A stretch of DNA of 64,000 bases from Thermoanaerobaculia bacterium. GTDB taxonomy: Bacteria; Acidobacteriota; Thermoanaerobaculia; Multivoradales; Multivoraceae. The stretch lies in the NCBI GenBank assembly GCA_963664405.1, contig OY761158.1:928001-992000 (forward strand). Reading direction: 5' to 3'. The translations under genes were made by a program, and so were the position numbers. The notes beneath the pieces were generated by a model. The model had not been told where the DNA came from and did no database searches. It saw only the letters and a program-made list of their open reading frames with translations. Positions 17,188 to 52,369 of the stretch are shown here, one piece after another. The first letter of the stretch is position 1; each line of letters opens with the position of its first letter.

Positions 17188-18021
17188 ATGGCGGTATTCA
17201 ACGCGCTCGTAAGGCGCCTCATCGACGCCCTCTTGGGGCCGTTCCAAAACTACCCGGCGATGGTGACTCTGCTGCCGATCTCGGTGGTGGTCACCGTTGC
17301 CGCGCTGTTGGTGCTCAAGCGAACCTCGAACCAGGAGGCTCTCAACCGCGTCAAGGCGAAGACGCACGCCGGCATCTTCGAGATCAGGCTCTTCAACGAC
17401 GATCTGAGGGCCATCTTCTCGGCCCAACGGAACATCTTGGTTCAGGTAGCAAAGCAGATCGGCCTGACCCTAGTGCCCCTGCTGTGGATGCTAGTGCCGA
17501 TGGCCGTCCTCCTCCCTCAGCTCCAATTCCAGTACGGCTACCTTGGCATCGAGCCCGGCGAGCCGGTGCTCCTCATCGCCACCCTCGACGCACCGCTGGG
17601 AGCCGACGAGACGAAGCCGGTCTTTCACCTCGAGACCCCCACCGGCGTTCGCGCGGAGACGGGGCCAATCTGGGTGCCCGCCAAGAACGAGCTGGTGTGG
17701 CGCCTGGTGGCGGATGAGCGCGGCAGCTTTGAGCTCTTGATCGTCGATGGCGGGGGAGGTAAGTCGGTCACCAAGAGCCTGGAGGTCTCGGACCAGATCC
17801 GAAGGCGCTCGCCGAAGAGGGTTACCGGCTTCTGGTCCCAAATCGCCTACCCCGCCGAGTCCCCGCTGCCGCCCGGTGCGCCTTTTCGGGAGATCTCCCT
17901 CGCCTACCGAGACGCAGAAGTCAGCTTTTTCGGCTGGGAGACCAACTGGATGATCGCCTTCCTCCTGCTCACCCTCGTCTTCGCCTTTGCCCTACGCGGG
18001 CCCCTTGGCGTCACCTTCTAG
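17188..18021 (+). CDS. membrane protein, possibly EMC3/TMCO1/DUF106 (Oxa1 superfamily)-like
   Basis: Amphipathic N-terminus, TM1, charged helical loop, TM2, extracellular domain, TM3 preceded by NW. Confidence 0.6.
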   Translation: MAVFNALVRRLIDALLGPFQNYPAMVTLLPISVVVTVAALLVLKRTSNQEALNRVKAKTHAGIFEIRLFNDDLRAIFSAQRNILVQVAKQIGLTLVPLLWMLVPMAVLLPQLQFQYGYLGIEPGEPVLLIATLDAPLGADETKPVFHLETPTGVRAETGPIWVPAKNELVWRLVADERGSFELLIVDGGGGKSVTKSLEVSDQIRRRSPKRVTGFWSQIAYPAESPLPPGAPFREISLAYRDAEVSFFGWETNWMIAFLLLTLVFAFALRGPLGVTF

Positions 18022-18182
18022 ACCAGCGTTTCCGAAGTTCGCGCACAGTTCTCGGCCCCTTCTGCCCGCTGGCGGCGTTGCGCCTCCTCGACATAGTCCC
18101 TGCTATGCCTGCGTCGGCGCGCCTTGCCAGCGAACAGAATGACCTCGAGTTCTGTACACGAACTTCGGAAACGCTGGTCTAG
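18018..18182. mobile_element. palindromic MITE copy 1 (165 bp including both CTAG)
   Basis: ctagaccagcgtttccgaagttcg...cgaacttcggaaacgctggtctag. The left CTAG contains the stop of the upstream gene. Confidence 0.9.
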
Positions 18183-19701: not shown

Positions 19702-19865
19702 CTAGACCAGCGTTTCCAAAGTTCGCGCACATATCTCGGCCCCTTCTGTCCGCTGACGGCGTTTCGCCTCCTCGACATATTGCCAATATGCCTGCGTCGG
19801 CGCGCCTGGCCAGCGAACAGAATGACCTCGAGCTATGTATACGAACTTTGGAAACGCTGGTCTAG
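19702..19865. mobile_element. palindromic MITE copy 2 (164 bp)
   Basis: Same terminal inverted repeats. The right CTAG supplies the stop of the minus-strand gene ending at 19862. Confidence 0.9.
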
Positions 19866-40378: not shown

Positions 40379-40557
40379 CTAGACGAGCGTTTCCGAAGTT
40401 CGAGTCGCATAGCTCGAGGTCATTCTGTTCGCTGGCAAGGCGCGCCGACGCAGGCATATTGGGAATCTGTCGAGGAGCGCGGGGGCGCCTAGCCAACGCC
40501 GCCAGCGGGCAGAAGGGGCCGAGATAGGTAGCGCGAACTTTGGAAACGCTGGTCTAG
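40379..40557. mobile_element. palindromic MITE copy 3 (179 bp, opposite orientation to copies 1-2, internal expansion)
   Basis: ctagacgagcgtttccgaagttcg...cgaactttggaaacgctggtctag. The right CTAG is the stop of the 40554 gene. Confidence 0.88.
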
Positions 40558-47903: not shown

Positions 47904-49333
47904 GGAGAGCGCTCCGTAGCCAACTCCGAGCGACGGTGGGCGAAAACGCTAGCCGGGAGCTCGAGAGTAAAGAGGCTCCCCTGCCCCACTTCGCTGCTGA
48001 CACCAAGGCGAAGCCCGCTCCGTTCGGTGAAGAGTTTCGTACGCAACAAATCGAGGCCGACACCGCCGGCCTTGTAGTCGTAGGGATGCCCCGAACTGTA
48101 ATCCTCGGTGCGACCGGCATGAACAAAGCCCGAAAACAGCTGATCGACGAGCTCGGCGTCCATGCCCACGCCAAAGTCTCGCACACGTAGCTCGATCTCT
48201 CCGCCGCTGTCTTCGAGCTCGACCCGAACCTCGCCGCCGTCAGCGGTGGCCTCGATCGCATTCCGAATGAGCCCGATCACGGCTTTCCTCAGGGGCGCTT
48301 CAGGCAAGCGCACCGAGGGGCAAACCTCGAGACAGAGCTTCACCTCCACCGCACGATGGCGATGAAGAGGAGCGATCTGCGCCACCACCTCGGCGACCCA
48401 GTTCTGCAGCAGAATCTCGACTTCCTCGTCATCGCGCCCTTCGGGGTAGAGCGCTTCGAGGCGACCGACGAGCTGAGCCATGGCGGCCGAGGTCGGACTC
48501 TCTTCCGCCACCCAGCAGGCGAGAAGATCGTGACAGCGGCTGTGCCAGGCATCGTCTCTCCGCTCCTCGCCGCGATCCTCCGCGTTGGCAATATCGGCGG
48601 CTTCGGTCTGCAGCTCGGTGAGGCGACCGAGGCTTCTCCGCGCCCGTTCCAGGATTGCCTCGAAACGGGCATCGTCCTGCCGCACCGAAGGCCTGCCGAG
48701 CAATCTCGAAGCCGAGGCAATGATGGCGAGCGGTGTCTTCAGCTCATGCGACAGGTGATCGATCATCTTCCGCTGCGCCTTAGCTACCGTTTCGAGGCGC
48801 GCATGGGCCTCCCGTAGCTCCTTCCATACCCTGGCATTGTGCAGGCTCACCGCCAGGATCGATTGAATGATCAGGAGGCTCTGCAAGGTCGCGGTATCGA
48901 TCGGCGACGGGTTTATCCTCTTCACCGTGACCACACCGAGCACCTGGTTTGAAGCCTGCATGAGCGGCACACATAGGCACTCTTTCCCATCGCTGGGCGC
49001 CTCTGCCCGGGGGAAGGGTACGGCTACATCCGAGTCCAGCGCATAGGACTCCGGCGCCTTCGATCGCAAGACGGCGCCAAAGACGCTACCCTCGACGGGT
49101 ACAGCGTCCGCCTCGCAATCGCTCACAGTCGAAGATGATCGCTCGAGATGCAGGAAGTCGCCGCTGGCGTCGAGAAGGAATATCGCCACTCCCTCACCGC
49201 CAGAGAAGTCCGAGAGGGCCTCGACACCACGATCCAGAATGGTCTCTCGGTCATCGTCGGCGAGCAGCAGACGAACCGCGAAGCTGAGGAGAGCGAGGCG
49301 CTCGGAGCCATCAAGGTTGGAGATCTGCGACAT
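47900..49333 (-). CDS. cytoplasmic GAF-domain histidine kinase
   Basis: GAF (LCVPL...GVVTV), HELKTP, NAIEA, DFGVG, GGVGLDL. Confidence 0.88.
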   Translation of the reverse strand: MSQISNLDGSERLALLSFAVRLLLADDDRETILDRGVEALSDFSGGEGVAIFLLDASGDFLHLERSSSTVSDCEADAVPVEGSVFGAVLRSKAPESYALDSDVAVPFPRAEAPSDGKECLCVPLMQASNQVLGVVTVKRINPSPIDTATLQSLLIIQSILAVSLHNARVWKELREAHARLETVAKAQRKMIDHLSHELKTPLAIIASASRLLGRPSVRQDDARFEAILERARRSLGRLTELQTEAADIANAEDRGEERRDDAWHSRCHDLLACWVAEESPTSAAMAQLVGRLEALYPEGRDDEEVEILLQNWVAEVVAQIAPLHRHRAVEVKLCLEVCPSVRLPEAPLRKAVIGLIRNAIEATADGGEVRVELEDSGGEIELRVRDFGVGMDAELVDQLFSGFVHAGRTEDYSSGHPYDYKAGGVGLDLLRTKLFTERSGLRLGVSSEVGQGSLFTLELPASVFAHRRSELATERSP

Positions 49334-49463
49334 CTCGGCGTCGAGCCTTGCCGTCGGCTGTTAGTCTCGCCCGAGGGCGAACTATAGCAGCGCAGGTCCT
49401 CCCGCACTTCTCGCGGGTCCTCCGCACAGACTCGCGGACCGGCGCTAGGGGAAGGGATTGGAC

Positions 49464-50177
49464 ATGGCACGCATTCCACTAGACCAGCGTTTCCAAAGTT
49501 CGTGGTGCATAGCTCGAGGTCATTCTGTTCGCTGGCAAGGCGCGCCGACGCAGGCATATTGGGGAATATGTCGAGGAGGCGCAACGCCGTCAGCGGACAG
49601 AAGGAGCCGAGATATGTGCGCGAACTTTGGAAACGCTGGTCTAGTAGACCCGAAGACGAGCGAGGGCTACGCCTCGAAGGTGTTCGAAGCGCAAGAGAGA
49701 ACCTGGGGAGCACCGCTTCTCAACCATCGGATCTATGCCCGGCGACCGGCGCTACTAAGAGCGGTAAGGGGCATGTGGACAGGATTGAACGACGGCGGAC
49801 TCCTCGATGACACGCTGTTGGCCCTGGTCAACCGCCGCGTCGCGGGCTTGAATGGCTGCGTCTTCTGAGCGGATCTCAACGCTGCAGTTGGCAGCGCTCT
49901 GGGAATCGCAGACAAGAAGCTGCTCGCCGTCGAGATCTACGCCACGAGCCCGCTGTTCAGCGATCGAGAGCGTGCCGCTCTCGAATACGCCGATGCCATC
50001 ACGCTGTCGGACCGCGACTTGAGCGAGGCTCTATTCGCTCGCTTACGGCGCTTCTTCGACGAAGACGACGTTGTCGAATTGACCGCAGCCATCGCCTGGG
50101 AAAACTCTTCGAGCAAGTTCAACCGCGCGCTCAGAATCGAGTCCCAGGGCCTCTGGAAACCCGATCGAGTGGGCTGA
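49464..50177 (+). CDS. AhpD/carboxymuconolactone decarboxylase-family probable selenoprotein (CxxU) carrying an in-frame MITE
   Basis: ...RRVAGLNGCVF-TGA(49866)-ADLNAAVGSALGIADKKL...FSDRERAALEYADAIT...FDEDDVVELTAAIAWENSSSKFNRAL. The frame stays open to the TGA at 50175. Confidence 0.85.
49479..49644. mobile_element. palindromic MITE copy 4 (166 bp), intragenic and in frame
   Basis: Removing 162 bp restores ATG GCA CGC ATT CCA CTA GTA GAC CCG (MARIPLVDP). Confidence 0.92.
49869..49909 (+). promoter_or_regulatory. putative bacterial SECIS hairpin
   Basis: Stem CGCTGC/GCAGCG (49880-49896) with a G-containing AGTTG loop, starting 11 nt after the UGA, plus weaker basal pairing. Confidence 0.6.
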
Positions 50178-50246
50178 GGCCGTGCAGCGAGACGGGGCCT
50201 CGTGGCGGCGCGCAGCCAGTGGCCGGCGGTGGCATATGATGGGACG

Positions 50247-51563
50247 ATGCGAAGACTGAATCAGGTGAAGCTGCTCTCGCTGGTCTTGATGCTGGCGCTC
50301 AGCCTCACTACCACCGCCTGCGACGTTCAGTCGCGGGCCGACATCCCCGCGCCCCAGCCGCGCAATCTGAGCCCGGCGTCCCCAGAGGATGTTGGTATGT
50401 CGACCGAGCGCCTCGGCCGTCTCTCGGTAGCGATGCAGAACATCGTAGACGAGGGCGAGCTCGCCGGCATCACGAGCATGGTGGCTCGTCGCGGCAAGGT
50501 CGTCTACGCCGAGACCTTCGGCCATCAGGAGATCGCCTCCGACACGAAGATGGATATCGACACCATCTTCCGCATCTATTCGATGTCCAAGCCGATCACC
50601 GGAGTGGCCATGATGCTTCTCTACGAAGAGGGCAAGTTCCGACTCTCCGACCCGGTTGAGAAGTACATCCCCGAGCTCGAGGGCCTCGAGGTCGCAGCCG
50701 GCGAGGGGAAGGACGGGCCCATCGTGGAAGAGGCCGACCACCCAATGACCATCCGCGAGCTGATGAGCCACACCGCTGGGCTCTCCTACGGCATCTTCTC
50801 CCAGTCCCAGGTCGACGATATGTACCAGGAGGTCAATGTCCTAGATTCGAAATCGACGCTGAGAGATATGATCGAGAAACTGTCGAAGATCCCGCTTCGC
50901 CAACAGCCCGGCTCGCTCTGGCACTACAGCGTGGCGGTAGATGTACAGGGCTATCTCGTCGAGGTCCTGTCCGGCAAGTCCTTCGACCAGTTTCTCGAAC
51001 AAAGGATCTTCGAGCCCCTCGGAATGAGCGACACCGCATTCCACGTGCCCCCTGAGAAGACCGATCGCTTTGCCCAGGTTTACTCTTATGACGAGGACAG
51101 GGATCTAGTCGCCCGGGAGGGCGGCGGCGGGTCGCGGAGCTACTTCGAGCCTGCGACGTTCTTCTCAGGCGGTGGCGGGTTGGTCTCGACCACCATGGAC
51201 TACATGCGCTTCTGTCAGATGCTCTTGAACGGTGGAGAGCTCGACGGCGTAAGACTGCTCTCCCCGCTCACTGTCGATCTCATGCACCGCAACCAGCTCC
51301 CTCGAGAGATGGGTGAGATGTCCCCGGGAGGCGGTACCGGCTTCGGTCTCGACTTCGCCGTGGTCCTGGACCCAGTCGCCGCCGACGGAGTGTCGAGAGG
51401 CGAGTACTACTGGGGTGGCGCCGCCGGCACATGGTTCTGGATCGATCCGGCCGAAGACTTGGTCTTCGTCGGCATGATCCAGCAATTCGGGCAAGGCCGA
51501 CCCGATCTTCGGTCGCTGTCTCGAAGGCTCACCTACCAAGCCATCGTCGACTCCGATAGCTGA
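50247..51563 (+). CDS. serine hydrolase, beta-lactamase class C-like esterase/peptidase lipoprotein
   Basis: FRIYSMSK (SxxK), LMSHTAG, WHYS, GGGGLVST, WGGAAGT. Confidence 0.9.
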   Translation: MRRLNQVKLLSLVLMLALSLTTTACDVQSRADIPAPQPRNLSPASPEDVGMSTERLGRLSVAMQNIVDEGELAGITSMVARRGKVVYAETFGHQEIASDTKMDIDTIFRIYSMSKPITGVAMMLLYEEGKFRLSDPVEKYIPELEGLEVAAGEGKDGPIVEEADHPMTIRELMSHTAGLSYGIFSQSQVDDMYQEVNVLDSKSTLRDMIEKLSKIPLRQQPGSLWHYSVAVDVQGYLVEVLSGKSFDQFLEQRIFEPLGMSDTAFHVPPEKTDRFAQVYSYDEDRDLVAREGGGGSRSYFEPATFFSGGGGLVSTTMDYMRFCQMLLNGGELDGVRLLSPLTVDLMHRNQLPREMGEMSPGGGTGFGLDFAVVLDPVAADGVSRGEYYWGGAAGTWFWIDPAEDLVFVGMIQQFGQGRPDLRSLSRRLTYQAIVDSDS

Positions 51564-52203: not shown

Positions 52204-52369
52204 TAAGACCAGCGTTTCCAAAGTTCGTGCTGCATAGCTCGAGGTCATTCTGTTCGCTGGCTAGGCGCGCTGACGCAGGCATATTGGGAAATATGTCGAG
52301 GAGGCGAAACGACGCCAGCGGGCAGAAGGGCCCCAGATATGTGCGCGAACTTTGGAAACGCTGGTCTAG
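52204..52369. mobile_element. palindromic MITE copy 5 (166 bp, left end TAAG)
   Basis: taagaccagcgtttccaaagttcg...cgaactttggaaacgctggtctag. Confidence 0.88.

Follow-up and report, generated by a model that had tools for sequence, protein, structure and literature searches.

A predicted AhpD/CMD-fold selenoprotein gene carrying a palindromic MITE in frame between its sixth and seventh codons

We analysed a stretch of 64,000 nucleotides from the genome of a Thermoanaerobaculia bacterium (Acidobacteriota), referred to as the window throughout. The listing of its standard open reading frames (ORFs) gives a frame at 49458–49868 that ends at the TGA at 49866–49868. If this TGA is read as selenocysteine (Sec, U), the frame 49464–50177 is open over 237 residues and includes the tetrapeptide C-V-F-U, so that the continuation of the frame through a CxxU to position 50177, as put forward in the original prediction from the letters of the window, was confirmed. 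The features of the locus, with positions in the window, are as follows.

49464–50177, plus strand: whole interrupted gene, predicted to encode a YciW-related AhpD/CMD-fold selenoprotein; 237 residues including Sec and a 54-residue insert
49464–49481, plus strand: original ATG and first six codons (MARIPL), cut off from the rest by the MITE
49475–49502, plus strand: left arm of the terminal inverted repeat, including the flanking CTAG
49482–49643, plus strand: net 162-bp insertion, consisting of the 160-nt MITE (49482–49641) and a duplicated TA; 54 codons, no stop
49601–49616, plus strand: AAGGAG (49601–49606), a 7-nt spacer and an in-frame ATG at 49614, within the predicted hairpin stem
49621–49648, plus strand: right arm of the terminal inverted repeat
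49644–49865, plus strand: protein core, from VDPK to C-V-F
49866–49868, plus strand: UGA predicted to be read as selenocysteine, the U of CxxU; TGA in 85 of 85 loci of relatives
49869–50174, plus strand: protein part 3′ of the Sec codon, conserved among relatives
49880–49896, plus strand: SECIS-like hairpin of 17 nt (CGCTGC, loop AGTTG, GCAGCG), beginning 11 nt after the UGA
50175–50177, plus strand: final stop codon, TGA

From VDPK onwards (residues 61–237), the product matches the Pfam family CMD with an E value of 3e-8, and its best NCBIfam match, and the only strong one, is NF053654, ‘YciW-related (seleno)protein’, which is aligned contiguously from position 7 to position 178 of 179 (E = 7e-81). 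The core scores 270 bits against this profile (265 bits in the genome search), under the curated cut-off of 310; uninterrupted orthologues from the same taxonomic family score 260 bits and other homologues 229–329. Profile positions 1–6 correspond to MARIPL, which is placed 162 bp upstream of the matched core, and while the N termini of homologues match the profile from position 1, the interrupted protein does so only from position 7. Intact homologues start with M-[AST]-R-[IV]-x-x and continue with V/I-[DEN]-P; such starts, and Sec or Cys at the position of the UGA, had been expected of relatives. Once the insert is removed, the protein has the 183 amino acids calculated in the original prediction, and its homologues have 180–185.

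The structural model points the same way. AlphaFold2, run on a 48-sequence alignment, predicts a confident all-helical core with pLDDT > 90 for residues 61–232 and a fold that begins at V61; residues 1–45 have pLDDT < 50 and residues 46–60 about 50–60, and the insert together with the first six residues is predicted to be disordered. Foldseek retrieves the AhpD-like structures 7xw1 and 2o4d and the debrominase Bmp8 (6ohi), with target TM-scores of 0.77–0.93 (0.93 for 7xw1), and a sequence search of solved structures also leads to 7xw1 (E = 6e-15). A codon-usage model trained on long ORFs of the same genome scores the sequence after the TGA at +0.23 per codon, compared with −0.59 and −0.27 in the shifted frames; the core before the UGA scores +0.13 per codon and the 54 inserted codons −0.22. 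The CxxU lies at the conserved position within the CMD/AhpD fold, and the gene is the sole close member of the family in the genome (the next match reaches 81.5 bits). Judged by these comparisons, 49464–50177 is one gene, predicted to encode a CMD/AhpD-fold redox protein with a CxxU active site.

At the codon aligned with 49866–49868, TGA was found in all of the 80 best loci from species-representative genomes, which span many phyla (the record titles include Acidobacteriota, Chloroflexota, Rubrobacter, Rokubacteria/Methylomirabilota, Gemmatimonadota and WPS-2), and, in frame, in five of five relatives of the same order with a clear homologue. Sequence is conserved among relatives on both sides of this codon. 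Twenty-five aligned database homologues have Cys (6) or Trp (9) at the Sec position or are fragments (10) that start 2–6 residues past it. All nine Trp-bearing homologues are JGI predictions, and their Trp is taken to be TGA read by another code. In public protein sets, the family appears either with Trp at the Sec position or as C-terminal fragments, of about 99 amino acids, that start just after it, which looks like a systematic mis-annotation of the YciW-related family.

The minimal SECIS element of Escherichia coli fdhF is a 17-nt upper stem-loop located 11 nt downstream of the UGA. The hairpin at 49880–49896 resembles it in length, in distance from the UGA and in having G and U in the loop, but its sequence is unrelated. 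In relatives the hairpin mostly reads CGCUGCC-GUG-GGCAGCG, with seven pairs and a 3-nt loop, compared with six pairs and a 5-nt loop here. In a set of 86 sequences (80 distinct), pairing holds in 91.1% of 560 cells, as opposed to 24–60% when the partner is slid, and changes on both sides are seen in three of the seven pairs, with a covariation score of 0.112 compared with 0.087 in shuffles, a score reached by 0 of 500 shuffles. Counting against the hairpin, its columns double as code for the conserved N-A-A-V-G-S. Folded alone, the region has ordinary stability (z = −0.35), and an Rfam scan of 49300–50300 placed no SECIS or other Rfam family on the hairpin.

The genome encodes the machinery for selenocysteine insertion. 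Matches to selD (362 bits), selA (423 bits) and selB (340 bits) are all above the curated cut-offs and a tRNA-Sec with anticodon tca is present, which makes the set of selA, selB, selC and selD, proposed in the original prediction as a check, complete. Because TGA is conserved at the codon, Cys forms exist, the hairpin shows compensatory changes and the Sec machinery is encoded, we predict UGA 49866 to be a selenocysteine codon, and the earlier classification as an AhpD/CMD-type selenoprotein gene agrees with the Pfam, NF053654, AlphaFold2 and Foldseek results and with the TGA in 85 of 85 loci. Two selD homologues are present in the genome: the better one (genome positions 388007–388930) has an in-frame TGA and is, from its sequence, probably a selenoprotein gene itself, and the second (565727–566650) is without TGA.

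Selenoproteins labelled ‘AhpD-like (COG2128/YciW), CxxU’ appear in the tables of PMC2398784 and PMC9312934 (the Zhang and Gladyshev family). The gene described here shares with NF053654 and this AhpD-like CxxU family the CMD/AhpD fold, the position of CxxU, a length of about 180 amino acids, the M-A-R-I N terminus, the SECIS-like hairpin directly after the UGA and the existence of both Sec and Cys forms. It differs in its score, which stands at 270 bits against the curated 310, and in the 54 foreign codons after residue 6.

These 54 codons are contributed by a fully palindromic element that sits between codons 6 and 7, whose 28-nt arms are 96% complementary. An equally valid reading of the insertion is a 158-nt element with a duplicated CTAG, and the empty site is the same either way. 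The proposal that the net 162 bp add 54 stop-free codons and represent the fourth copy of a miniature inverted-repeat element is borne out by the inverted repeats and by the copies elsewhere in the window, where the terminal 21-mer occurs ten times, that is, in five copies, with 0.01 occurrences expected by chance. The other four copies, given without strand, are the following.

18021–18179: MITE copy 1
19705–19862: MITE copy 2, adjoining the TAG stop of a minus-strand gene
40382–40554: MITE copy 3, 173 nt, adjoining the TAG stop of a minus-strand gene
52207–52366: MITE copy 5

Across the genome we counted 137 copies of 158–251 nt, 63 of them exactly 160 nt. Their flanks have the form CTA|element|TAG, with TA on the left in 127 and on the right in 133 of the 137, and since this holds for nearly all copies, the target is CTAG. 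The family has terminal inverted repeats, small size, no transposase coding, many copies, a target duplication and an empty site, the features by which a MITE is recognized. Orientation was set by global alignment, as BLAST is unreliable for this element because it is palindromic.

In the 41 genomes searched, full-length copies occur in the host genome only. Thirteen of 40 related genomes (G004, G039, G034, G005, G009 and others) have repeats that match the centre of the MITE alone, at 73–93% identity over positions of about 17–137 and without the terminal repeats; the MITE may have a modular build, or new ends may have been joined to an older hairpin core to form a chimera. A search of the host genome with the 21-nt end, allowing up to three mismatches, found no autonomous partner insertion sequence with MITE ends. 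It returned three end pairs more than 300 bp apart, all of which were rejected: two pairs of 2700 bp hold an IS91-type transposase and an integrase, are unrelated, and have ends that match only at three mismatches each, and a pair of 3633 bp with perfect MITE ends (genome positions 6281700–6285332) encloses an unrelated IS21 with IstA-like and IstB-like genes. This IS21 looks as if it landed inside or between MITE copies.

The RNA of 49440–49680 is predicted to form a near-perfect hairpin about 165 nt long (minimum free energy −132 kcal/mol, z = −11.9) that begins 11 nt after the start codon at 49464. A plant microRNA precursor matched this hairpin at 34 bits, compared with a gathering score of 200, and was set aside as a generic match to a long hairpin. 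A consensus scan of 49300–50300, MITE included, found no promoter or terminator consensus. Of the 160 positions of the family consensus, 7 differ in the copy within the gene, about three of them by rare changes. One of the differences, G to A at 49605, is unique to this copy and turns AAGGGG into AAGGAG; AGGAG followed by ATG is found in 1 of the 137 copies, and position 49605 reads G in all other contigs compared.

To place the insertion among strains, contigs of four public runs (X1, X7, X9 and X10) were compared with 49200–50400; the runs listed as containing the locus include no RNA run. A 644-nt contig of X10, a seawater metagenome, runs through 49200–49478 and resumes with 49641–49853, skipping exactly 162 bp, with four ambiguous letters at the junction that correspond to CTAG. 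In the contigs of X7 (3226 nt) and X9 (2604 nt), 163 bp are missing and a single C stands in their place; they have CCA (Pro) as codon 6 compared with CTA (Leu) here, and no CTAG. Over 49643–50400, the X7 contig differs by ten letters and two gaps (about 98.7% identity). The Sec codon at 49866–49868 is unchanged in all four runs. In X1, a 9004-nt contig extends from the upstream gene into the MITE by 54 nt and a 2618-nt contig starts within the MITE, 26 nt from its right end, and continues through the gene, both with zero differences. Both ends of the MITE are hence crossed in X1, as the original prediction had suggested checking, and the empty site that it reconstructed exists as such in X10 and, with one further base pair skipped, in X7 and X9. 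The MITE insertion is real and is a recent difference between strains, because three other runs contain the locus without it.

The position of the MITE in this gene can be set against its placement genome-wide. Each copy was removed in silico and genes were called with the codon model, using a crude custom gene caller; unoccupied CTAG sites, classified alike, served as a control (n = 1499).

Outside genes: MITE 88 of 137; control CTAG 545 of 1499
On a TAG stop codon: MITE 26 of 137; control CTAG 99 of 1499
First 70 nt of a gene (5′-proximal): MITE 13 of 137; control CTAG 111 of 1499
Deeper inside a gene: MITE 10 of 137; control CTAG 744 of 1499

Relative to positions outside genes, and compared with the control sites, copies inside genes are about 12-fold depleted (10 to 88) and copies in the first 70 nt are hardly depleted (13 to 88). 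The stop-codon count covers minus-strand genes only, owing to the definition of the junction, and the TAG stop is part of the CTAG target; at stop codons the MITE may rewrite or preserve stops.

A single copy that is in frame and free of stops is not remarkable, because the net length of about half of all copies (76 of 137) is a multiple of three and 66% (91 of 137) are stop-free in the orientation and frame seen in the gene. In the reverse orientation and the same frame, 95 of 137 are open; the CTAG target permits four combinations of orientation and frame, and three of the four are open in most copies. The 5′-proximal copies taken together show a stronger pattern. Twelve of these 13 are in frame and without a stop, compared with 57 of the 114 copies that are intergenic or on stop codons (Fisher p = 0.003), and 12 of 13 have one orientation relative to the gene, compared with 75:62 overall. 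By eye, in a curation that is post hoc and deals with small numbers, 10 of the 13 interrupt signal peptides after the charged start and before the hydrophobic core, lipoboxes being present in several, and two (1233722 and 1749830) resemble insertions in a 5′ untranslated region (UTR); without these two, 11 of 11 are in frame. Ten of the 13 are 160 nt long, the commonest length, and the in-frame excess could reflect youth alone, young copies having this length and so being in frame in any case.

The 12 of 13 cases amount to repeated insertion, in frame and without a stop, into genes that are otherwise intact, as in the Rickettsia palindromic elements (RPEs), and the bias in orientation and frame suggests that selection filters where MITEs persist. 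Selective filtering of in-frame elements is known for RPEs. The 5′-proximal copies lie within the first 4–12 codons of their host genes, which include sulfatases and lipoproteins; sites include 918291, 1614488, 1861954, 2274071, 2422658, 2553225, 2663462, 5149810, 6131948 and 6461670. One in-frame 5′-proximal case is a peptidase gene just upstream of the window.

What the interrupted gene now produces can be read in several ways. Two of these question the recoding or the insertion itself. That TGA 49866 simply ends translation, with the downstream similarity left by a dead remnant or a separate gene, is in keeping with standard ORF calling, which ends there, and with the many database entries that are C-terminal fragments of about 99 amino acids starting just past the TGA; but TGA in 85 of 85 loci across many phyla with conservation on both sides, the Cys forms, the compensatory hairpin changes and the full Sec machinery all speak against it, and we regard it as highly improbable and, as far as sequence can tell, refuted by conservation. 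That the assembly placed the MITE in the gene wrongly, because it is a multi-copy repeat, is more improbable still. The short-read contigs of every run do break inside the MITE, and the filled site is supported by X1, which may itself be the source sample of the window; on the other side, the X1 contigs enter the MITE from both sides without a difference (54 nt and 26 nt), the genome is a single 6.78-Mb contig, and the copy in the gene has private substitutions.

The remaining readings concern expression. The one we favour, at about an even chance, is translation through the MITE: ribosomes would start at the original ATG at 49464, unwind the MITE hairpin and read the 54 open codons, giving a 237-residue selenoprotein with an intact catalytic core and its first 60 residues as a floppy N-terminal extension, and the MITE would survive since the extreme N terminus is the one region of a gene from which the family is not purged. 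In line with the proposed tolerance, the core is intact with coding-like codon usage, and the catalytic core, the Sec codon and the SECIS-like hairpin, all at least 220 nt 3′ of the MITE, are untouched; the structural model faintly hints that the extension may be harmless, and the slight depletion of copies in the first 70 nt of genes, with their in-frame and one-orientation bias, agrees indirectly. Against this, the near-perfect hairpin could keep ribosomes from initiating or attract RNase III, an enzyme that the genome encodes, and with flanks about 98.7% identical between filled and empty strains the insertion may be so young that selection has not yet acted on it. On these same points rests a somewhat unlikely alternative in which the MITE has silenced the gene or nearly so, through blocked initiation or cleavage by RNase III, leaving a nascent pseudogene whose intact core merely reflects how recent the insertion is. 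The empty-site alleles in three other runs, the stability of the hairpin, the non-coding codon usage of the insert and the missing second family member that could show the function to be needed all fit silencing, as does the report in PMC2649163 that RNase III cleaves or binds Correia elements once they are transcribed. However, the frame is still open despite the seven differences from the consensus, and the in-frame, open, one-orientation bias of the 5′-proximal copies would be unexpected if insertions simply killed genes. The persistence of the insertion itself proves little about tolerance, because the filled or empty state varies between close strains.

An unlikely further reading gives the gene a new start from the MITE, at which AAGGAG and the ATG at 49614 would yield a protein of 187 residues, with ten residues from the MITE in place of the original six, perhaps enabled by RNase III removing the 5′ arm or by upstream ribosomes opening the hairpin. 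The Shine–Dalgarno (SD)-like sequence and the ATG are 7 nt apart and in frame, the substitution at 49605, which makes the SD perfect, is seen in 1 of 137 copies and is absent from the other contigs compared, and the overlapping ATGTG offers, in this orientation, a start codon in both CTAG-allowed frames. A start within the MITE would also fit the 12:1 orientation bias, for which stops alone are no explanation, the reverse orientation being open in 95 of 137 copies. Against it, SD and ATG lie inside the predicted hairpin stem, the MITE has no promoter-like site, the change at 49605 is a single post hoc observation, and a net length divisible by three would not be needed, yet is found in 12 of 13. 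The frame bias favours read-through from ATG 49464, and the orientation bias favours either the SD-and-start end of the MITE or its Arg-rich peptide. The gene is most likely still expressed.

A broader possibility, which we also hold to be doubtful, is that these MITEs serve as a portable N-terminal or translation-start module. In one orientation the outer end of the MITE, with SD-like AAGGRG and overlapping ATG and GTG, would provide starts for both CTAG-allowed frames, both of which are open, and first-codon insertions (11–13 cases, mostly in signal peptides, and the selenoprotein gene) would survive as N-terminal extensions or re-started proteins, with hairpin processing perhaps setting the level of expression. 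If this were true, the filled and empty alleles would differ in regulation and the filled allele would not be a knock-out.

Palindromic repeats inside genes are familiar from other bacteria, and the review PMC10969869 calls in-frame MITE fusions ‘not unusual’. RPEs and other intragenic MITEs with such fusions (ERIC, BOX, Coxiella QMITE1 and the Anabaena MITEs) resemble the family reported here in being palindromic repeats of about 150–160 bp in many copies, in having several open frames and in lying in frame in otherwise intact genes. In contrast to these, the host belongs to the Acidobacteriota, no sequence relation is expected, and in-gene copies cluster at the first 4–12 codons, mostly in signal peptides, in one orientation and at a CTAG target. 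The Correia repeat-enclosed elements of Neisseria (PMC2649163) are likewise MITEs of about 155 bp with long inverted repeats and a TA-containing target, with many copies 5′ of genes and a transcribed hairpin whose binding or cleavage by RNase III alters expression. Their described effects are transcriptional, or on mRNA stability from the 5′ UTR, whereas the MITE here lies inside the coding frame.

Both the selenoprotein family and in-frame MITE fusions are, then, already described; what the locus adds is a pair of natural filled and empty alleles and a genome-wide pattern of oriented, in-frame copies at first codons. The locus is also prone to a double mis-annotation, cut at the UGA and given a false N terminus by the repeat. 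With filled and empty alleles in close strains, the effect of an in-frame palindromic element on the translation of a real gene can be tested directly. Apart from the MITE, the empty-site contig of X10 is also without 21 nt at 49418, between the histidine-kinase gene and the selenoprotein gene.
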